A stretch of 64,000 nt of DNA from Oscillospiraceae bacterium. GTDB taxonomy: Bacteria > Bacillota > Clostridia > Saccharofermentanales > Saccharofermentanaceae. A program made the translations under genes and the position numbers. Positions 54,873 through 64,000 of this stretch are shown here, piece after piece (within the stretch, counting starts at the first letter, position 1; every line of letters starts with the position of its first letter). The notes below the pieces were generated by a model that worked only from the letters and a program-made list of their open reading frames with translations, was not told the DNA's origin and did not search any database. The stretch is taken from contig CACZMA010000003.1 of assembly GCA_902782125.1 (NCBI GenBank), positions 87,429 through 151,428 of the forward strand. Direction: 5' to 3'.

Positions 54873-55613
54873 TCAGTCCAGAAGATCTGCGAGAGAGCTG
54901 ATCTCATCGCAGGGCAGGTTACGTGCGACCGTGGGAGACTGCTCTGTCTGGATATAGCAAGCTGCCATGTTCGCAGCCATACCGCCCCTGACATCGCCGA
55001 ACTCGTCAGATCCGATGAGAACGCAGTCCTTTGCCTTGATCTCGGAATTCTTAAGTGCAGCGGTGAAGAATGCCTTGGAGGGCTTCTTTGCTCCGATCTC
55101 GGAAGAGATCTGGATGCCGTCGAACAGGTCGATCAAGCCGAGGCTCTCAAGCTCCGGGATGGAGAAGCATGCCTGGCCGTTAGTGAACAGATAGATCTTC
55201 TTGCCCCTCTTCTTCAGTTCCTCGAGGACCTTCTTTGCCTCGGGATAGAGAGCGAGCTTGGTTATGGAGATGCTCCTGAAGGTGAGCGCAGCCTCATCGA
55301 CCTCCGATGAGAATACCCTGCAGCCCTTCTGGGTGAACAGTTCCTTGAATACTTCGGACAGATCGAAGTCGGCCTCTTCGGCAGCGAGCTTGGACTTGCC
55401 CTTCTTGGATTTCTTGGCGGAAGCTTCGGCGTGCTCACGGCAGAGTCTCGAATATTCCTCGCGGAACTCGACTTCGTCGTAGCTTGCGCCCTTCATGGAA
55501 TAATATCTTGCCATGGAGCTCCAGAGATACGGAAGGTTCTCATCCGTGCGGATATCTACCAGAGTGCCATATAAACTGAATACGAAGTTGTTTTTTGTGT
55601 CAAACATAGCCAT
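54873..55613 (-). CDS. HAD-superfamily protein lacking the motif I nucleophile Asp
   Basis: FSLYGTLVD (motif I), FTNG, KKPS, IGSDEFGD. Confidence 0.8.
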   Translation of the reverse strand: MAMFDTKNNFVFSLYGTLVDIRTDENLPYLWSSMARYYSMKGASYDEVEFREEYSRLCREHAEASAKKSKKGKSKLAAEEADFDLSEVFKELFTQKGCRVFSSEVDEAALTFRSISITKLALYPEAKKVLEELKKRGKKIYLFTNGQACFSIPELESLGLIDLFDGIQISSEIGAKKPSKAFFTAALKNSEIKAKDCVLIGSDEFGDVRGGMAANMAACYIQTEQSPTVARNLPCDEISSLADLLD

Positions 55614-55722
55614 AAGCCCCCTTCAATCTGACAATCCAAAATAATAATATATTATTTTTTTGCGTTCGTGGGGATTATTTGATTTGTTTATCTGACTAAA
55701 TAAGCAGCCGGAAGGGGATTTT

Positions 55723-56325
55723 TTATGTTTTTCCTGCAACAAATTCGATGATCCGGGCCGCATGGTCCGCTCCGAGCACATCAGTATTGATGCAGAGATC
55801 GTATGTCGCGGCATAGCCCCACTCGTTCCCGGAGAACTGATTATAGTAGGCTGCACGCTCCTTATCGGCACGCAGGACCTTCTTTTTGGCCTCTTTCTCG
55901 GTCAGATGTTCTCTATTCATAACATGAACTATGCGGGATTCGACCGAAGCGGTAATAAAAACGCTCAGGAGGTTGGGCTTCTCTGCAAGGATCTCGTTCG
56001 CACGGCGGCCGACGATGACGCAGGGGCCTTCTGCGGCGATCTTCTCTATGACTTCTCTCTGGGCATTGGCGGCGATCTGCCTTACCGATGAATATGTCGG
56101 GCTCATATAGCCTACCGACATGTAGAGCGCCGCGTCGTTGATCTCCTTCTCGTCGACGCTGGCCAGGTATTTCTCGTCCAGGCCGCTGCTCCTGGCAGTC
56201 TCTGCGAGGAGTTCCGAATCGTAATACGGGATCTTCAGGTCTTCTGCGACCTGTCTGCCGATCGACCTTCCTCCTGCTCCGTAAGACCTTCCTATCGTTA
56301 TGATCTTTCCTGTTGCAGCTGCCAT
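55723..56325 (-). CDS. Cytidylate kinase-like family protein
   Basis: ITIGRSYGAGGRSIG, CVIVGRRAN, YDLCINT. ATG 56325 after GGAGGTG. Confidence 0.85.
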   Translation of the reverse strand: MAAATGKIITIGRSYGAGGRSIGRQVAEDLKIPYYDSELLAETARSSGLDEKYLASVDEKEINDAALYMSVGYMSPTYSSVRQIAANAQREVIEKIAAEGPCVIVGRRANEILAEKPNLLSVFITASVESRIVHVMNREHLTEKEAKKKVLRADKERAAYYNQFSGNEWGYAATYDLCINTDVLGADHAARIIEFVAGKT

Positions 56326-56358
56326 ACAGTCACCTCCCGGTCTCGAACCCTCAAAAGG

Positions 56359-56383
56359 ATTATATGTATGCTTCAAGCATACA
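56359..56383 (-). promoter_or_regulatory. Perfect 19-bp palindrome abutting a TATAAT -10 box, candidate operator
   Basis: TGTATGCTT-C-AAGCATACA (56365-56383), immediately upstream on the minus strand of TATAAT (56364-56359). Confidence 0.6.
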
Positions 56384-56428
56384 CTTTTTTCGCGCGGCTG
56401 ACACGCGTAAAAAGTATCTTCCGGTGTA

Positions 56429-57193
56429 TTACTCTGCCTCGGCGTCTTCGTTTGCTTTCTCCTCTTCCTTCGCGGCGGCAGCATGCTTCATGTGCCAGAA
56501 GTAATAGCAGATGCTTCCCACGAGGAAAGTTACGATGATGAGGGCGCCGATTATGAAGAGCCTTATATAGTTGCCGTTGTTGAGCGCACTGCCTCCGATG
56601 GCGGAGAGGAATATCGCCGGGAACCTTCCGATAAAGGTTATCGCGATCCAGACGGGAAGCTTCATGTCAGTAAATCCGATGAAATATGTAATGATGTCCT
56701 TGGGCGTTCCCGGGATTAGGAAGAGTATGAACGTCACCATGTCCCTCTTGGGCGAATACTTGAGGAACTTGACCTGATCGAGCTTGTCCTTCGGCACAAA
56801 GAGTTCGACGAACCTCATGCCGAACTTCCTTACCATGAGGAACACGAACAGACTGCCCACCGTCATGGCAACATCGGCGATGATGGAACCCAGCACGGTC
56901 CCGAAAGCATATCCCGCGGCAACCTCGAAGGGACCGCCGGGAATAACAGCCGCGACGACCTGCAGGAACATGCAGATCATGAACATTATGATGCTCCACG
57001 GCTTCTTGTCGTGCATATAGGCACGGAACTCGGCAGGGTTCTCCGCCATCTCGAGCATCGGCTTGCAGATGAGGAAAGACAGCACGATCACCACCGAGAA
57101 GATGGCGACCAGGAGCAGGATCGCGAGGGCTCTCTTGCGTATGGTCTCTTTACTTGCCGGCTGCTTTTTTTCCGGATTCTTTTTTGTTCTCAT
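56429..57193 (-). CDS. TVP38/TMEM64 (DedA/VTT) membrane protein
   Basis: FLQVVAAVIPGGPFEVAAGYAFG, FLIPGTPKD, GRFPAI. Confidence 0.88.
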   Translation of the reverse strand: MRTKKNPEKKQPASKETIRKRALAILLLVAIFSVVIVLSFLICKPMLEMAENPAEFRAYMHDKKPWSIIMFMICMFLQVVAAVIPGGPFEVAAGYAFGTVLGSIIADVAMTVGSLFVFLMVRKFGMRFVELFVPKDKLDQVKFLKYSPKRDMVTFILFLIPGTPKDIITYFIGFTDMKLPVWIAITFIGRFPAIFLSAIGGSALNNGNYIRLFIIGALIIVTFLVGSICYYFWHMKHAAAAKEEEKANEDAEAE

Positions 57194-58430
57194 TTTCTTC
57201 TTTCTGCTCGAGCTGCTTCAGCTTGGCGACGATATAGTCAGCGGTATTGGAGGCACCTTCGCCCCTGCACTGCCAGATCTCTTCCCTCGCCTGTGCGCGG
57301 GTCTCCTTGAACTTGGGGTTGGTCAGACACTCTTCGATAAGGTCCTTGACGCCTGCGGCATTGTCTATCGTAAGACCCATGCCGATCTTTGGGAGCATCG
57401 TGAGCGACCAGGGCTCTTCCTTCAGGAAGTAGTAGTCATACTGACCCTTGTCGAACTCGATGTCTGCATATATGACGGGCTTGTCGAAGATGAATGCGAA
57501 GTCCAGCATGACACCCGAGAAGTCGGAGATCATGATGTCGGACCTTCTCAGAACTTCGAAGTTGTCATTGTCCCTGTTCCACTCGAGGTTCTCGCTGTCC
57601 GGGAACTCCGCCATGAGACGGTCGATGACGTCCTTATCCGCGGTAAACGACTGCGGGTGAGGCCTTATGATGACGTGGTAGCCTGTATCGAGAAGATTCT
57701 TTATCATCGTCTCGCCGTATCTTACGAGAAGACTGGAAACGCCCCACGAAGGCGCGAGAAGGACCGTTGTCTTGTCCGACTTCGGTGCGGGACCTGCAGC
57801 CTCGACGCGCTTCATCATCTCGTCCATATAGGGGATGCCGACGATCCTGAGTTCCTTCTTGGGAAGTCCGCGGAGCTTCTCGAGTTCTCTTATCTGATCG
57901 ATCTGCACCTGGCCCGAGAAGAGTATCGCATCAAAATAGTCGAGCTCGAACATCCTGTAGGATGCCGCATCTCTCGGAGCGTGCATAATGTGCACATAGT
58001 AATCAACGGATCTCGATCGCTTCCACTGGAGAACGTCGAGGCCCGGGGTGGTACAGAACACCAATGTGGCATTGAGCATGTTGAGCCTTGTGAAGGCCTT
58101 GTTGCCCTCGCCGATGAATTCAGTCTTGATGTGCTTGTATTCCTTGGACAGCGCCGGATCATCAGGCGACGATGTCATGAATACGGTATTTACTCCTCTT
58201 GCTTCGAGTTCGTCGCAGATGGGTTCGAATGTGTTCCAGTAACGCTTCGAATCCGAATAGATGACAAGCGGGATCCTGTTCTTGTCCGCTTTCCTTCCTG
58301 CGCCTGACTTGAGCTTGATGATGAGAGTCCTGACAAGATAGACGGCCGCACTCAGGATGCCTATCAGGACCGTGAAGAGCATCGAGCCCGTGCCCGGATC
58401 GATGTAAAGACTGAAGAGCTGATTAACCAT
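57150..58430 (-). CDS. CDP-glycerol:glycerophosphotransferase (TagB/TagF-like) family protein
   Basis: YIDPGTGS leader plus TM helix, VGIPYMD, VLLAPSWG, IRPHPQ, ISDFSGVMLDFAFIFDKPVI. Confidence 0.85.
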   Translation of the reverse strand: MVNQLFSLYIDPGTGSMLFTVLIGILSAAVYLVRTLIIKLKSGAGRKADKNRIPLVIYSDSKRYWNTFEPICDELEARGVNTVFMTSSPDDPALSKEYKHIKTEFIGEGNKAFTRLNMLNATLVFCTTPGLDVLQWKRSRSVDYYVHIMHAPRDAASYRMFELDYFDAILFSGQVQIDQIRELEKLRGLPKKELRIVGIPYMDEMMKRVEAAGPAPKSDKTTVLLAPSWGVSSLLVRYGETMIKNLLDTGYHVIIRPHPQSFTADKDVIDRLMAEFPDSENLEWNRDNDNFEVLRRSDIMISDFSGVMLDFAFIFDKPVIYADIEFDKGQYDYYFLKEEPWSLTMLPKIGMGLTIDNAAGVKDLIEECLTNPKFKETRAQAREEIWQCRGEGASNTADYIVAKLKQLEQKEENENKKESGKKAAGK

Positions 58431-59541
58431 TGATGTACTCCATAAAGTTGTTCTTGTTCTCTATCGCCGTTGTCGTCGGTCTTCCGAGATCCGCTCTCGC
58501 TCCGACCTGACACTTTATCTCAATGAATATGAGCTCATCCGACGTCCTTGCTTCTTCAAGCGCGGAGGCAAGACCTTCTTCATCCGATACGGTAAGAGCC
58601 TTCGGATATCCGCAGGCCCGGGCCACGCCGGGAAGATCAACGGAGCCTGCGACAGTGGGCATTCCTCCGACAGTCTCGTGAGCTTCATTGTTGATAACGA
58701 TGTGGACCATGTTGGAAGGTTTGTTCTCTCCTATCACGGCCATCGAACCCATGTGCATGAGAGCAGCGCCGTCGCCGTCGATGCACCATACCTTGAGCTC
58801 AGGCCTGTTGAGCGCCACGCCGAGTGCGATGCTCGAGCAGTGACCCATGGAACCGACGGTAAGGAAATCATACTTGTGGCTCATGCCCTGCGCCGTACGG
58901 TACTCGAAGAGTTCTCTCGATATCTTGCCCGTCGTGGACACGATGGGATCTTCTCCTGCCGCAGCTGCGATCTGCCCTACCACGAACTCGCGGTTAAGGG
59001 TAAAGGCATTGCTGTAATCGACTTTGCCTTCGAACTCGAGCGCGCCTTTGCGCACGACGAATGCGACCTGCTTGCCGTTTGCAAGAAGTCCTTTGAACCC
59101 GTCTATAACCCCGGCAAGTTCTTCCTCGGTCGTATCGGGACCTATCACAAAGTTGGCGACATCCATATCGTCTAAGAGCTTTGTCGTGACCATTCCCTGA
59201 TAGATGTGCTGGGGCTCGTCATGAACGCCGGGCTCGCCTCTCCATCCGATGATGAATATCGTCGGTATGGCATACACCTTGTCATTAAGAAGCGATGCAA
59301 GAGGATTGATTATGTTGCCCTCGCCGGAATTCTGCATATAGACGACGGGCACCTTGCCGGTCGCCATGTGATAGCCTGCCGCGAGTGCAGCACAGTTACC
59401 TTCGTTCGCAGCTATGATGTGATGGTGCGGGTCTATCCCGTACTTGCTCATGAGGCAGTTGCACAGCGCCTTGAGCTGCGAATCCGGAACTCCCGTATAG
59501 AAGTCCGCGCCTATAAGATCCATCAGTCTTTCAACTCTCAT
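58423..59541 (-). CDS. aepY: Phosphonopyruvate decarboxylase
   Basis: GVPDSQLK, AANEGN, YMQNSGEGN, EPQH, TVGSMGH, IDGDGAALMHMG...NN TPP motif. Confidence 0.95.
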   Translation of the reverse strand: MRVERLMDLIGADFYTGVPDSQLKALCNCLMSKYGIDPHHHIIAANEGNCAALAAGYHMATGKVPVVYMQNSGEGNIINPLASLLNDKVYAIPTIFIIGWRGEPGVHDEPQHIYQGMVTTKLLDDMDVANFVIGPDTTEEELAGVIDGFKGLLANGKQVAFVVRKGALEFEGKVDYSNAFTLNREFVVGQIAAAAGEDPIVSTTGKISRELFEYRTAQGMSHKYDFLTVGSMGHCSSIALGVALNRPELKVWCIDGDGAALMHMGSMAVIGENKPSNMVHIVINNEAHETVGGMPTVAGSVDLPGVARACGYPKALTVSDEEGLASALEEARTSDELIFIEIKCQVGARADLGRPTTTAIENKNNFMEYING

Positions 59542-59551
59542 ATCTGTCTCC

Positions 59552-60535
59552 TCACAGGTTGTGGTAGATGTTCACTATGTCTTCGTGCGTAAGCGCCACC
59601 GGGTTGTTCGAGAGCCTGTCGAGATTGACGCTGTCTGCAAGACCGTCATAATCTTCTTCGGCTATCTCCGGCTTCGGGAGTGCCAGGTATTCGAAGAATT
59701 CCCTGAACTGCGCCTTGTAGTCTTCGACGAACTTCATGTTGTCCGTCCTGCCTTCCATGAAGTCCCACAGTGCGTTAACGCAGAGGAGCGCCGCATGTCC
59801 GTGGGCAAGCCCGTACTTTGTCGTAAGCTTGTAGCAGAGGGCGTGGCCTCCGGTCGTTTTCGTTATGTTGATGGCTTCGCCTGCTTCGAATGCAGCATCC
59901 ATCATCGCACCGAAGGTCGTATCGTCGCTCTCGAGATAGGCCTTGTAGCCGGTAAAGATCTTATCGAGCGCGCTGTATGAGAACTTCCTGCTCTCTTCGC
60001 ATGTGGCGGCAGACCATGCGGATTCGACTGCATGGCAGACCGCATCCGACAGTGTCGCCTTCTTCTGATAGAGCGGCAGGCCTTCCAATACGGAAGGATC
60101 GATGAGGACCACATCCGGCAGCATAGAATCAGATGTCAGAGATGTCTTGGTGCCGTTATCGTAGATGACCGCAAATCTCGTTGCCTCGCTTCCCGTTCCG
60201 GCCGTGGTCGGGATGGCTGCAAAAGGCACCTTAAGTTCACCTTCGAACTTTATGGCCTTGGCAACATCCATCGCACTTCCGCCGCCTGCACCGACGATCG
60301 TATCGGCACCGCTCTCCCTGAATGCTTCAATGCCCTTCACAACGGAAGAGTGATCCGGGTTAGGCGTAAAATCCCTGAAGTAAGTGATCCTGAATCCGAC
60401 AGCCGCCAGGCAGTCAAGGAACCTTCCGGGCGCAATGCCTGCGAACGAATTGCCGCACACCACGAACAGGCTCTTAAGACCTCTCGCGGACAGCCACCTT
60501 GCAAACTCGTTGTAGTCTCTTATAACTTCGCTCAT
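59552..60535 (-). CDS. Iron-dependent (group III) alcohol dehydrogenase, probable phosphonoacetaldehyde reductase
   Basis: GAGGGSAMDVAK, IPTTAGTGSE, DAVCHAVES, GHALCY...HGH. Lies between pepM and ppd. Confidence 0.85.
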   Translation of the reverse strand: MSEVIRDYNEFARWLSARGLKSLFVVCGNSFAGIAPGRFLDCLAAVGFRITYFRDFTPNPDHSSVVKGIEAFRESGADTIVGAGGGSAMDVAKAIKFEGELKVPFAAIPTTAGTGSEATRFAVIYDNGTKTSLTSDSMLPDVVLIDPSVLEGLPLYQKKATLSDAVCHAVESAWSAATCEESRKFSYSALDKIFTGYKAYLESDDTTFGAMMDAAFEAGEAINITKTTGGHALCYKLTTKYGLAHGHAALLCVNALWDFMEGRTDNMKFVEDYKAQFREFFEYLALPKPEIAEEDYDGLADSVNLDRLSNNPVALTHEDIVNIYHNL

Positions 60536-62541
60536 AATTCCTCCGGAATAAGCCTGATGATCTGCTTGAATCCCATCAGGTGTTCGTCAGCTTCCTTCGC
60601 GCGGTGATTCTTAAGGATCTCCTCGGCAGTCTGCTGCATCGCGGGAACCTCTGCTCTCATGAGCTGGTTCGCATATATGACGACATTGACACCGAGCTTC
60701 TTCCACTCGTCTTCCTTAACGGAATTGAACGATGTGGGAACGATGACTATCGGTGTGACCTTGTCCTGACTTCTGAACTTGTTGATGAACTCGATGATCT
60801 CATCCGGGTCAGGTCTTCTCGAGTGGATCATGATGCCGTCTGCGCCAGCCTTGACGAAAGCAAACGCACGCTCCAGAGCGTCCTCCATTCCGCGCTCCAG
60901 GATAAGGCTCTCGATCCTGGCGATGATCATGAAGTCAGATGACTTCTGCGCCTTCTTGCCGGCAGCGATCTTCGCGCTCATCTCCTCTATCGTAGCCTGT
61001 GTCTGCTCGACTTCGGTACCGAACAGGGAATTCTTCTTGAGGCCCTTCTTATCCTCGATGATGACGGCAGATACGCCGAGCTTCTCGAGTGATCTTACCG
61101 TGTATACGAAATGCTCCGTAAGTCCGCCTGTATCTCCGTCGAAGATGATCGGCTTCGTCGTGACTTCGGTGATATCGTCTATCGTCCTGAACCTTGATGT
61201 CATGTCGACGAGCTCGATATCGGGCTTGCCCTTCGCGGTCGAATCGCAAAGCGATGATATCCACATGCCGTCGAACTGATAAGATGCGCCGCCGTCGTGG
61301 ACCACCGTATTCTCTACAATGAGTCCGCTGATGCCGTCATGCGCTTCCATCATCGTTACAAGGCCCTTCATCGCGATGAGCTTCCTGAGCCTTCCGCGCC
61401 TGTTATCGGGCAGCGAGAGCTCGAGTCTCGCGCGGTTATCAACTTCCTTGAGCCTGGGATCGGATGAATAAGGGAACTCGACGAGCCTGCCGCCGTATGT
61501 TCCGAGAAGTTCTATTACCTCCTCACGGATGCTCTTCTGGAATCCTTCCTTCCAGTTATCGCCGTGAACTATGATGTCCGGATGATACTGCTCGATCACA
61601 TCCTTGTAGCTGAGCGTATCCTGTTCAACTACCTTCCAGACGCCCTTTACCGACTTGAACATCGCGCAGCGCTCCTCGAAAGGAACGAGCGGATAGCGCT
61701 TGTAGGATGCCACTGCCTCATCGCTCATGACGCCGGCTATCACTCTTCCGAGCCTTACCGCTCTCTTGATGAGCTTAAGGTGTCCGCTGTGCAGGATGTC
61801 CGTAGAGAAACAGATATATACCGTCGTGTTCTTGATGGCTTCGAGCCTGTCCGATACAGTCTTCAGATCCTCGGGGTTATCGACCTCGCCGCAGAGCATC
61901 TCTCCGACGTCGTACGGCTTGATCTCAGTATCAGCGGAGACCTCATTAAGAGCCTTCTCCGCATAGCAGTTTGTGTTGTCTTCTTCGCAGTATCTTACGA
62001 TGGCAGCAAGCCACACTTCCCAGTCCTTGCGTGTGAGCTTGTACAGGGGCTGAGCTGCTACCGCGTCATCGAAAAACTCCACTCCTACCTTCGTGATCCT
62101 GCCGCCTTCCACGACCGCCTTGAAGTCCTTCTCGGGAAGAGGAACTGAAGAAGATACCGTCATGGCAGAACCTTCCTGCTCGAGCATGCCGTCCAATACG
62201 GCATTCTCGAAAACAAGGTCTCCGTGCATGAGCAGGATGTCGTCATGGAGAAGCTCTCTTGCCATGTATATCGAGTAGATGTAGTTCGTCTTGTCATAGA
62301 CGGGGTTCGCTACATATGTGATGTTTATCGGCAGTCTGAGAGACGCGATGTAGCTCTCGAGCACATCTGCAAAAGGGCCCGTCGTCATGACGATGTCGGT
62401 GATGCCGACATCAGCGAGCTGGCTGAGCTGCCTGCTTACGATCGTCTTGCCGATGGAGAGTTCCGTCATGCATTTGGGATGCTCGTTTGTAAGGTCTCCC
62501 ATTCTCTTGCCGAGTCCGGAGTTAAGGATAAGTGCTTTCAT
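60532..62541 (-). CDS. pepM: Triple fusion: NTP-transferase + TagD-like cytidylyltransferase + PEP phosphomutase
   Basis: NSGLGKRMG...HPKC (NTP transferase), DILHSGH and VHGDNW (HxGH cytidylyltransferase), MEAHDGISG and EDKKGLKKNS (EDK-X5-NS PepM motif). ATG 62541 overlaps the upstream TAA. Confidence 0.95.
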   Translation of the reverse strand: MKALILNSGLGKRMGDLTNEHPKCMTELSIGKTIVSRQLSQLADVGITDIVMTTGPFADVLESYIASLRLPINITYVANPVYDKTNYIYSIYMARELLHDDILLMHGDLVFENAVLDGMLEQEGSAMTVSSSVPLPEKDFKAVVEGGRITKVGVEFFDDAVAAQPLYKLTRKDWEVWLAAIVRYCEEDNTNCYAEKALNEVSADTEIKPYDVGEMLCGEVDNPEDLKTVSDRLEAIKNTTVYICFSTDILHSGHLKLIKRAVRLGRVIAGVMSDEAVASYKRYPLVPFEERCAMFKSVKGVWKVVEQDTLSYKDVIEQYHPDIIVHGDNWKEGFQKSIREEVIELLGTYGGRLVEFPYSSDPRLKEVDNRARLELSLPDNRRGRLRKLIAMKGLVTMMEAHDGISGLIVENTVVHDGGASYQFDGMWISSLCDSTAKGKPDIELVDMTSRFRTIDDITEVTTKPIIFDGDTGGLTEHFVYTVRSLEKLGVSAVIIEDKKGLKKNSLFGTEVEQTQATIEEMSAKIAAGKKAQKSSDFMIIARIESLILERGMEDALERAFAFVKAGADGIMIHSRRPDPDEIIEFINKFRSQDKVTPIVIVPTSFNSVKEDEWKKLGVNVVIYANQLMRAEVPAMQQTAEEILKNHRAKEADEHLMGFKQIIRLIPEEL

Positions 62542-64000
62542 TACCATTCCCCCTCATATGTCCAATTGTCTTTGTTCCACAGATCGTCTTTTACGGAATA
62601 CCAGTATCCGGGAAGATACGTGGTGCCGTTGTTCTTGTCTACTTCCCACTCCGTGGAATTGAAGAGAAGCAGATCGCCGTATTTGTCTTCGTTCGTGATC
62701 GGGTTGCCCGTGTAAGGGTTAACCGGATCGTCTACAACATCCTTCAGTGCAAGATACGGTGTATCCGCATTGGTCATGAATTCGTCTGAAGTGGTAAAGC
62801 CCGTGGCGCCGAAGTCCTTGACCATGAACAGCGGCGTGAACCACTCCGCATCGAGTCCGACCTCGAGGTCAGACAGGAACAGATCCGAGAATCCTCCGAG
62901 ACCCGATCCGTGATCTGCGACCACGATGATCTTCGTGTTGTCATACACGCCCTGCTCACGCAGATAGTCGAGCCAGTCGGCAAGTGCATAGAGCGATGCG
63001 GTGTTGATCTGATAGTGTGCGTAATCGAACGAGTCGAGCATGATCATGGTCTTGCCGTTAACGGTGAACCTCGCCATGTTCGTCTGATCGAATACGGTGT
63101 TGTCGATATAATCTGCAGGCAGATAATCGGGCTCAGACAGGAGCGCCGGATTGTGTGTCGACTTGCATGTGAAGAACAGGAAATTGTTCGAAGATCCGTT
63201 ATCGATTATGGTCATAGATTCAAGGCCCAGGAGCGCATAGTACTCGGACTCAAAATCCTTGTTGTGTCCGTATGCCGTGGAAGGGCCCGTGATGACCTGC
63301 GAAGACTCTGAGATATCGACCAGCGTCGTCTCGTTGTAATTGCCGTTGTCGTAGAAGATGCTCTGCAGGAGAACGGGCGCCGACTTGTAGAGCGAATACG
63401 AGAAGAGGTTGTGTCTGATCTCATCGTCGTATGCTTTGCCGAAATCTATTCTCGAATACTTGAAGAGCGTGTTGTATGCCTTAACGCCTTCCATGTCATC
63501 GAAGATGCCGAGGCTCGGATACCAGGTGTAGCCCGCATAAGAAGGATTGATCATGACGGAATTGAATCCGTTCTCCGAGAAGATCGCGGGAAGCACCTTG
63601 AGCGCTTCGTCGTGCTTATCCATGAGAAGCTCGTCGTCTCTTGCATTGAGCTTGTCGGGAGTATATTCGTATCCGCCGTAGAGTGCCGGTGCCGCGAAGT
63701 TCGTCCACGCACCGAATGAGATGGTGTTGCTGTAGTAAGTAAATCCGTCGAGTCTCTCTTCAAGGTCAGGGTGCTCTGCAAGGATATAGGGGATCATCGG
63801 TCCTATCGCACGGTCGAGCATGATGACGACGACGTTCTGTCCTTCTGTGGACAGGGTGAACTCCGGCATCTCGGTCGAATACTGACCCTTGACTGTCTTA
63901 TATCCCTCTTCGATCTTAACGGCGTTGACGATACCCATTACAAAGAACACAAGCGAAGCGGATATCGCGATGACCGCAGCAGCAGTTCTTGCAAATCTTA
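62541..64000 (-). CDS. LtaS/sulfatase-fold (alkaline phosphatase superfamily) membrane phosphotransferase, 5' end outside the window
   Basis: Frame stays open to 64000 (a TM helix precedes the domain). VMLDRAIG, AWTN (Thr nucleophile position), STHNP, VADHG motifs. Confidence 0.75.
   Translation of the reverse strand, partial: RFARTAAAVIAISASLVFFVMGIVNAVKIEEGYKTVKGQYSTEMPEFTLSTEGQNVVVIMLDRAIGPMIPYILAEHPDLEERLDGFTYYSNTISFGAWTNFAAPALYGGYEYTPDKLNARDDELLMDKHDEALKVLPAIFSENGFNSVMINPSYAGYTWYPSLGIFDDMEGVKAYNTLFKYSRIDFGKAYDDEIRHNLFSYSLYKSAPVLLQSIFYDNGNYNETTLVDISESSQVITGPSTAYGHNKDFESEYYALLGLESMTIIDNGSSNNFLFFTCKSTHNPALLSEPDYLPADYIDNTVFDQTNMARFTVNGKTMIMLDSFDYAHYQINTASLYALADWLDYLREQGVYDNTKIIVVADHGSGLGGFSDLFLSDLEVGLDAEWFTPLFMVKDFGATGFTTSDEFMTNADTPYLALKDVVDDPVNPYTGNPITNEDKYGDLLLFNSTEWEVDKNNGTTYLPGYWYSVKDDLWNKDNWTYEGEW

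Follow-up and report, generated by a model that had tools for sequence, protein, structure and literature searches.

The stretch analysed here, called the window below, comprises 64,000 nucleotides of an Oscillospiraceae bacterium, one of the rumen Clostridia (assembly GCA_902782125.1, contig CACZMA010000003.1, positions 87,429 to 151,428), and our subject is a gene in it whose product joins three domains: an N-terminal nucleotidyltransferase (NNT) resembling LicC and PntC, a middle cytidylyltransferase-like domain of the HxGH type (CyT in general, CyT* in this protein and its like), and a C-terminal phosphoenolpyruvate (PEP) mutase, PepM. The original prediction, made from the letters alone, had placed these three domains in one open reading frame at 60532-62541, and the coordinates proved exact. 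Pfam finds all three (NTP_transf_3/NTP_transferase at residues 4-124, CTP_transf_like at 250-344, PEP_mutase at 387-645), and the motifs NSGLGKR and HSGH are present as described. A plus-strand reading of the interval meets many stops, which assigns the gene to the minus strand. There, a single open frame spans 60532..62547 (671 aa when translated), with the 5' flank GAGGGGGA-ATG-GTA-ATG. The first in-frame ATG, at 62547, would give the 671 aa; the start is most likely the second, at 62541, for a protein of 669 aa, because a GAGGGGG ribosome-binding site precedes this ATG by 6 nt, because the TAA of the upstream gene runs into it as TAATG, and because the relatives of the protein all begin MKALIL.

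The neighbouring genes lie on the same strand and are tightly packed (Table 1). The stop of the fusion gene overlaps, as ATGA, the start of a gene for an iron-dependent alcohol dehydrogenase (Fe-ADH). From this arrangement we read the fusion gene as translationally coupled to the genes of Fe-ADH and of the phosphonopyruvate decarboxylase Ppd, the three together being a cassette for 2-hydroxyethylphosphonate (HEP). PepM, Ppd and Fe-ADH constitute the established route to HEP (PMC8942020), and the original prediction was right on the three-domain anatomy and on its link to HEP. In NCBIfam the Fe-ADH best matches the phosphonate-linked model TIGR03405. At 327 aa this enzyme is shorter than in most relatives (about 370 aa), and it has the short form in common with the nearest ones (L022, L023 and L159). 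In the genome, 97.8% complete, we found no orthologue of the 2-aminoethylphosphonate (AEP) transaminase AEPT, no TagD above cut-off and no LicD; its only two PF04464 genes are both at this locus. Scans for promoters and terminators gave no signal above chance.

Table 1. Features of the locus, from the upstream to the downstream end of the minus-strand genes (positions in the window)
Feature	Position	Strand	Remarks
YidC-like + LtaS/sulfatase-like fusion, 3' part	62541..64000	-	upstream gene, up to 862 aa in the genome; extends past the window
Three-domain protein NNT-CyT*-PepM	60532..62541	-	669 aa from ATG at 62541 (ribosome-binding site spacing, TAATG overlap)
LicC/PntC-like NNT domain	61834..62541	-	residues 3-238; PF12804 34.7 bits (cut-off 27)
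NSGLGKR	62503..62523	-	residues 9-15; GxGxR nucleotide-binding signature, Asn-Ser for the usual Ala-Ala
MHGDLVF	62209..62229	-	His108 where PntC has Glu104; metal-binding Asp110 (profile alignment)
YAEKALN	61945..61965	-	Glu197 at PntC Glu196 / LicC Asp192, head-group contact (profile alignment)
GEVDNPEDL	61864..61890	-	Glu221-x-Asp223 aligns with ExD of LicC and PntC (profile alignment)
HxGH cytidylyltransferase-like domain CyT*	61462..61830	-	residues 240-362; PF01467 57.3 bits
HSGH	61780..61791	-	residues 253-256; first HxGH-family signature, retained
PYSSDPRLK	61447..61473	-	in place of Fom1 PYTPGISST / TagD PRTEGISTT; second signature absent
PEP mutase domain	60538..61389	-	residues 387-670; TIGR02320 398.2 bits (cut-off 319.55)
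EDKKGLKKNS	61027..61056	-	residues 498-507; Ppm-specific EDKxxxxxNS motif
Fe-ADH, likely phosphonoacetaldehyde reductase (makes HEP)	59552..60535	-	start overlaps the fusion-gene stop
Ppd	58423..59541	-	TIGR03297 457 bits (cut-off 312.5)
TagF-like (Glyphos_transf) transferase, candidate HEP transferase	57150..58430	-	within the operon
DedA/VTT membrane protein, cytidylate-kinase-like protein, HAD pyrimidine-nucleotidase-like hydrolase	54873..57193	-	downstream genes

By its sequence the C-terminal domain is a bona fide PEP mutase. It scores well above the cut-off of TIGR02320, the NCBIfam equivalog of this enzyme, matches the structures 1m1b and 5unc of the Protein Data Bank (E ~1e-42), and carries the motif EDKx5NS that separates Ppm from its isocitrate-lyase relatives (PMC6697681). 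Besides, it is coupled to a phosphonopyruvate-consuming enzyme, Ppd, two genes downstream and likewise above the cut-off of its model. With PF12804, PF01467 and PF13714 in one polypeptide, the protein falls in the triple-fusion class of Rice et al.: among 1485 non-redundant motif-bearing sequences, 33.0% of Ppm were fused to PF12804, 23.6% to PF01467 and 2.9% to both (Rice et al. 2019, Nat Commun 10:3698, PMC6697681), the double fusion being counted there without characterisation or discussion. Single cytidylyltransferase-PepM fusions, which the original prediction took as established, are indeed known from Fom1 and from the same census. As later literature naming both PF12804 and PF01467 we found only the 2022 inventory of the same group. 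The architecture is thus real, common and already catalogued, not new; the fusion protein belongs, as an ordinary member, to a class that is known though uncharacterised, and the architecture by itself is no discovery.

The class is widely distributed. A survey of PepM-homologue architectures, proposed along with the original prediction, found dozens of species from gut and rumen with the triple fusion, and the best 120 database relatives of the protein (67-98% identity) all hold the same three Pfam families; those that bear a name go simply by "phosphoenolpyruvate mutase". Among the carriers are Clostridia of rumen and gut, Synergistales, Erysipelotrichaceae, Treponema, Domibacillus and Natronincola, with Oscillibacter sp. 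1-3, Angelakisella massiliensis, Domibacillus robiginosus and Natronincola peptidivorans as cultured examples; as nearest relative we found a metagenome-assembled genome of a buffalo-rumen Clostridiales, identical in gene order. Within the same bacterial family, the relatives in 121 genomes take one of five forms: the triple fusion, CyT-PepM by itself, NNT-CyT-FeADH, NNT-CyT by itself, and NNT on its own beside Fe-ADH. Species genomes gave 80 loci seeded by NNT, 68 of them with a complete PepM gene. All 68 hold both NNT and CyT (fused in 52, as adjacent genes in 16), 59 hold Fe-ADH and none AEPT, and the conserved core over the 80 loci is restricted to NNT, CyT, PepM, Fe-ADH and Ppd. The metagenome loci with complete PepM, 38 in number, have both nucleotidyltransferases (29), CyT only (8) or NNT only (1); at locus L163, NNT accompanies a plain PepM of 290 aa and CyT is lacking. 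LicD/TagF domains number 0-3 per locus (mean 1.1, n=48) where both nucleotidyltransferases occur, and in a comparison with three well-covered CyT-only loci this number does not tell the two kinds of locus apart.

The AlphaFold2 (AF2) model of NNT (pLDDT 97) has, in Foldseek, PntC-AEPT (6pd2) as top neighbour with a TMq of 0.85; LicC (1jyk, TMq 0.79) and inositol-1-phosphate cytidylyltransferase are found as well. Over its whole length the NNT family profile can be aligned with LicC (92 bits) and with PntC (75 bits), and none of 31 family members departs from G11, G13, R15, K25 (the catalytic Lys), D110, E221 and D223. The substrate pocket is another matter. In Tde-PntC the amine of AEP is held by Glu104 and Glu196, positions taken in LicC by Asp105 and Asp192 (PMC6697681); NNT lacks this acidic pair and shows an invariant His108 with Glu197 instead, a variant pocket that is of neither the AEP nor the choline type. 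As a control in the same bacterial family, PF12804 enzymes encoded beside amine-forming enzymes (the winged helix-turn-helix (wHTH)-nucleotidyltransferase of operons ordered nucleotidyltransferase, AEPT, CyT-PepM, Ppd, and a nucleotidyltransferase-aminotransferase fusion) retain Glu at the first pocket position, and the paralogues of this amine branch retain AAG where NNT has Asn-Ser. We infer that the pocket follows the head group, His going with a hydroxyl and Glu with an amine, which points to HEP as the substrate of NNT.

The partners of NNT were explored by searching residues 1-238 against 1.84 billion representatives, with 214 clusters matching over the full length at E <= 1e-30. NNT-bearing proteins come in lengths of about 240 aa (standalone), about 600, 375-440, 670, 750-780, 900 and 1228 aa, and in those sampled Pfam reveals fusions with Fe-ADH, with Fe-ADH and LicD, and with Fe-ADH and two LicD; one metagenome locus encodes NNT-FeADH-GT2-LicD-LicD as a single protein of 1506 aa. 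Such very large fusions of NNT and Fe-ADH, with or without GT2 and with one or two LicD, are seen at L106:10001-14521 (+) and in P0153 (912 aa) and P0238 (1228 aa). Judged by their domains, the NNT-FeADH-LicD fusions unite synthesis, activation and transfer in one polypeptide. NNT, a complete enzyme by its motifs, is likely the HEP-activating enzyme, because it has the full catalytic motifs, PntC as top neighbour, His for Glu, and relatives fused to Fe-ADH and LicD. We also considered NNT and Fe-ADH as a polyol-phosphate module of the TarI/TarJ kind, and found no support for it: the Fe-ADH most resembles phosphonate-linked Fe-ADH, its likeness to glycerol-1-phosphate dehydrogenase being weak, and the finding that none of the 121 related genomes has NNT without PepM also counts against such a module.

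Two further observations concern PF12804 enzymes outside this class. At L004:5480-7318 (-), on genome contig C5, a PF12804 nucleotidyltransferase and a class I/II aminotransferase-like domain are fused in a protein of 612 aa, and a gene of this type adjoins arrays of YidC-LtaS genes in L024, L026-L030 and L032; the PntC-type Glu/Glu pair of the fusion suggests that it activates an amine-bearing phosphate or phosphonate. The AEP operon, in the order wHTH-PF12804 nucleotidyltransferase, AEPT, CyT-PepM and Ppd, is found in about 17 of 20 relative loci (L182-L201), and its CyT is without GISST.

For the middle domain, described at first as HxGH and TagD-like, the HxGH motif and the fold stand; membership in TagD does not. 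TIGR01518 (TagD) gives 37.8 and 41.3 bits for a cut-off of 165.4, so far below that TagD identity is ruled out, and CyT* is instead a Fom1-type module: its closest solved relative is the CyTase domain of Fom1, 5x3d (119 bits, E 1e-33), and its AF2 model superposes on this HEP-CMP-bound structure with a TMt of 0.94, an rmsd (root mean square deviation) of 1.2 A and 44% identity. What CyT* does not contain is the second signature of the family, RTEG(I/V)ST(S/T), which reads PYTPGISST in Fom1, PRTEGISTT in TagD and RTQGVSTT in human ECT. This signature, described as strictly conserved, makes contact with CTP, and coordination of pyrophosphate is expected of it (PMC6060094). The segment replacing it is variable and predicted to be helical.

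The loss is not peculiar to our protein. The second signature is present in none of 76 triple fusions, none of five NNT-CyT(-FeADH) proteins, none of 15 CyT domains of AEP operons and 2 of 28 split loci, as against 6-7 of the 8 CyT-only HEP loci. The HxGH domain has lost it, then, nearly everywhere it has a PF12804 partner of the tallied types; the two exceptions, where NNT stands with a signature-bearing CyT, are L102 and L106. The CyT of CyT-only loci is also closer to Fom1 (202 bits, compared with 119 for CyT*). In a quick tree, built on 139 columns and with many unresolved forks, a Fom1-type clade with 98% support gathers signature-bearing domains—those of CyT-only loci, two CyT-PepM proteins beside NNT-FeADH, and radical-SAM-CyT fusions—and CyT* is placed outside it.

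The radical-SAM fusions deserve a word of their own. In Synergistales (L087:2155-3474 (+), L061:2505-3938 (+)) a fusion of a radical-SAM domain and a motif-complete Fom1-type cytidylyltransferase directly follows the triple-fusion gene. It recalls Fom3, which acts on CMP-HEP in fosfomycin synthesis, and by this analogy hints at a modified HEP. At L018:4502-5671 (+), in a locus with gene sets for AEP as well as for HEP, a short-chain dehydrogenase has a very divergent PF01467 domain fused to it at the C-terminal end.

Put together, these data lead us to favour, with a probability of about 0.55, the reading that the operon is a cassette for tailoring the cell surface with HEP, in which NNT would activate HEP and CyT* would be retained in a non-canonical form, most likely no longer activating. 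Substrates and loss of activity are here deduced from domains, motifs, gene order, distribution and selection. The C-terminal PEP mutase would convert PEP to phosphonopyruvate, Ppd would decarboxylate it and Fe-ADH would reduce the resulting aldehyde to HEP; NNT would then form CMP-HEP and pyrophosphate from HEP and CTP. The TagF-like enzyme of the operon, or LicD in its place in other species, would move HEP to a polymer of the cell envelope, itself presumably built by the neighbouring YidC-LtaS-like/TagF-like module, which is independent of the phosphonate genes. CyT* would descend from a Fom1-type HEP cytidylyltransferase that lost its second catalytic signature, and would be kept as a conserved, non-canonical module for scaffolding, dimerisation, nucleotide binding or regulation. 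A plausible history would start from CyT-PepM alone, continue with the gain of NNT (L102 and L106 being possible intermediates) and the loss of the CyT signature, and end with the fusion of adjacent genes; L163 may show the complete loss of CyT.

More tentatively, and clearly below even odds, CyT* might be called a conserved pseudo-cytidylyltransferase, which lost its signature after a PF12804 enzyme took over activation in AEP and HEP operons alike, and which strong selection then kept as a scaffold or as a sensor of nucleotides or CMP-phosphonates. If true, CyT* could control the PEP mutase or act as a partner to the PntC-like domain, and the family would offer a case of recurrent non-orthologous displacement with the displaced domain retained.

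Several observations nevertheless weigh against the favoured reading. HxGH is retained in 73 of the 76 triple fusions, CyT* has KR and HGD(D/N)W preserved as well, and in fold it is near-identical to HEP-CMP-bound Fom1. About 28% of its columns are at least 95% conserved, and purifying selection on it is as strong as on NNT (dN/dS ~0.08 for both and 0.03 for PepM, approximate values as dS is near saturation). It accompanies NNT even without PepM, in NNT-CyT and NNT-CyT-FeADH proteins, and the pairing of NNT with a motif-complete CyT in L102 and L106 indicates that two activities are not always exclusive. On the side of the pathway, the Fe-ADH does not reach the curated cut-off of TIGR03405. 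Relic is thus too strong a word for CyT*, since it is conserved, under selection and stays with NNT in the absence of PepM; and since purifying selection is strong on NNT and CyT* alike, a second role for CyT* beside NNT is possible.

One form of such a second role is that both domains are active on two substrates, one making CMP-HEP and the other a CDP- or CMP-linked donor such as CDP-glycerol or the derivative of another polyol phosphate, so that one polypeptide would supply both backbone and decoration of a polymer. We regard it as unlikely, though the strong selection on both domains speaks for it; the position of CyT* outside the clade of Fom1-type HEP enzymes could mean a new specificity, and the locus has two TagF-like genes in a genome where TagD is wanting. 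HEP has, reportedly, been found esterified to glycerol in actinomycete phosphonoglycans. However, CyT* is without the CTP- and pyrophosphate-binding signature common to all characterised members of its family, the specific TagD/glycerol-phosphate form fails with TagD membership, and the core of the 80 loci holds no extra enzyme for a second substrate. Moreover a congener devoid of PepM, CyT and TagD retains the module of two YidC-LtaS genes flanking TagF (L202), which implies that the TagF/YidC-LtaS polymer module is independent of the fusion protein for its supply of CDP-glycerol; the related idea of CyT as a substitute for TagD feeding the TagF-like enzymes is weakened by the same observation. 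The charging of HEP and of a polyol phosphate by two domains, as the original prediction had it, is therefore not the reading we favour, given the missing signature of CyT*, an NNT fully equipped and with a pocket suited to a hydroxyl, and the polymer module of the PepM-less congener.

Improbable, in our estimate, is the exchange of roles in which the HxGH domain, like its counterpart in Fom1, acts as HEP cytidylyltransferase, and NNT activates a sugar phosphate, phosphocholine or inositol phosphate. The HEP-CMP-bound Fom1 domain is indeed the closest solved relative of CyT*, CyT alone suffices in the 8 HEP-type loci, and NNT resembles inositol-1-phosphate cytidylyltransferase over its full length. 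But the CyT domains that work alone bear GISST and CyT* does not, NNT is fused to Fe-ADH and LicD and found only in phosphonate loci of the Fe-ADH type, L163 does with NNT and no CyT, and the replacement of Glu by His follows the hydroxyl and amine branches. We give as little credit to an action of both domains on HEP, whether redundant, with different nucleotides or for different transferases: the nearest characterised relative of each acts on a small phosphonate, L102 and L106 combine NNT with a complete CyT, and in NNT the base preference could be altered by the invariant Asn-Ser that precedes GxGxR, but plain redundancy is unexpected across dozens of species at a dN/dS of 0.08, and the lost motif argues against full activity of CyT*.

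Decorating the cell surface with phosphonates is a widespread trait of gut and rumen bacteria, and for HEP we know of no step past the first three enzymes that has been worked out. Knowing which fused module makes CMP-HEP tells experimenters what to express. For genomes, the favoured reading could provide a rule legible in the sequence: His or Glu in the PntC pocket, together with whether or not the HxGH domain has GISST, would predict the phosphonate and the active enzyme.

The genomic surroundings hold some other features. A YidC/60KD_IMP insertase-like N-terminus fused to an LtaS/sulfatase-like domain forms proteins of 862 and 873 aa that flank the second TagF-like gene (L003:70-2658 (-), L003:2764-4047 (+) and L003:4044-6665 (+) for the whole module), and relatives have up to four tandem copies of such fusions. 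The DedA/VTT, cytidylate-kinase-like and HAD genes are conserved in the closest relatives only; the latter two (PF13189 and a pyrimidine-5'-nucleotidase-like hydrolase, window 54873-56484 (-)) close the operon and may handle the CMP released by the transferases. Elsewhere in the genome, L004:7444-10554 (+) encodes a 1036-aa protein with an N-terminal, ThsB-like TIR domain and beta-propeller repeats, possibly a defence gene.

Compared with known systems, the fusion protein is nearest to the "both" fusions of Rice et al. 2019, with which it shares the identical three-domain architecture and EDKx5NS. With TagD (1coz), CyT* has the HxGH Rossmann-like fold in common, but identity is about 22%, TIGR01518 stays far under its cut-off and RTEGISTT is absent. 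Fom1 of Streptomyces wedmorensis, a CyTase-PepM protein, also has an HxGH domain before PepM, followed by Ppd and Fe-ADH making HEP. It differs by its PYTPGISST, where the fusion protein has PYSSDPRLK, and by the lack of a PF12804 domain, the PntC-like one being extra in our protein; and Fom1 feeds an antibiotic pathway, whereas the fusion protein most likely feeds a surface polymer. PntC (PntC-AEPT of Tde1415, 6pd1/6pd2, and Ari-PntC) and LicC (1jyk) share with NNT the fold and all catalytic motifs. At the position of Glu104 in PntC stands His108 in NNT, and before GxGxR Ala/Gly gives way to Asn-Ser. The logic of fusion is the same in the characterised PntC-AEPT of Treponema and in the relatives of NNT, namely a nucleotidyltransferase joined to the enzyme that converts phosphonoacetaldehyde, this partner being a transaminase in the former, AEPT, and an alcohol dehydrogenase in the latter, Fe-ADH.

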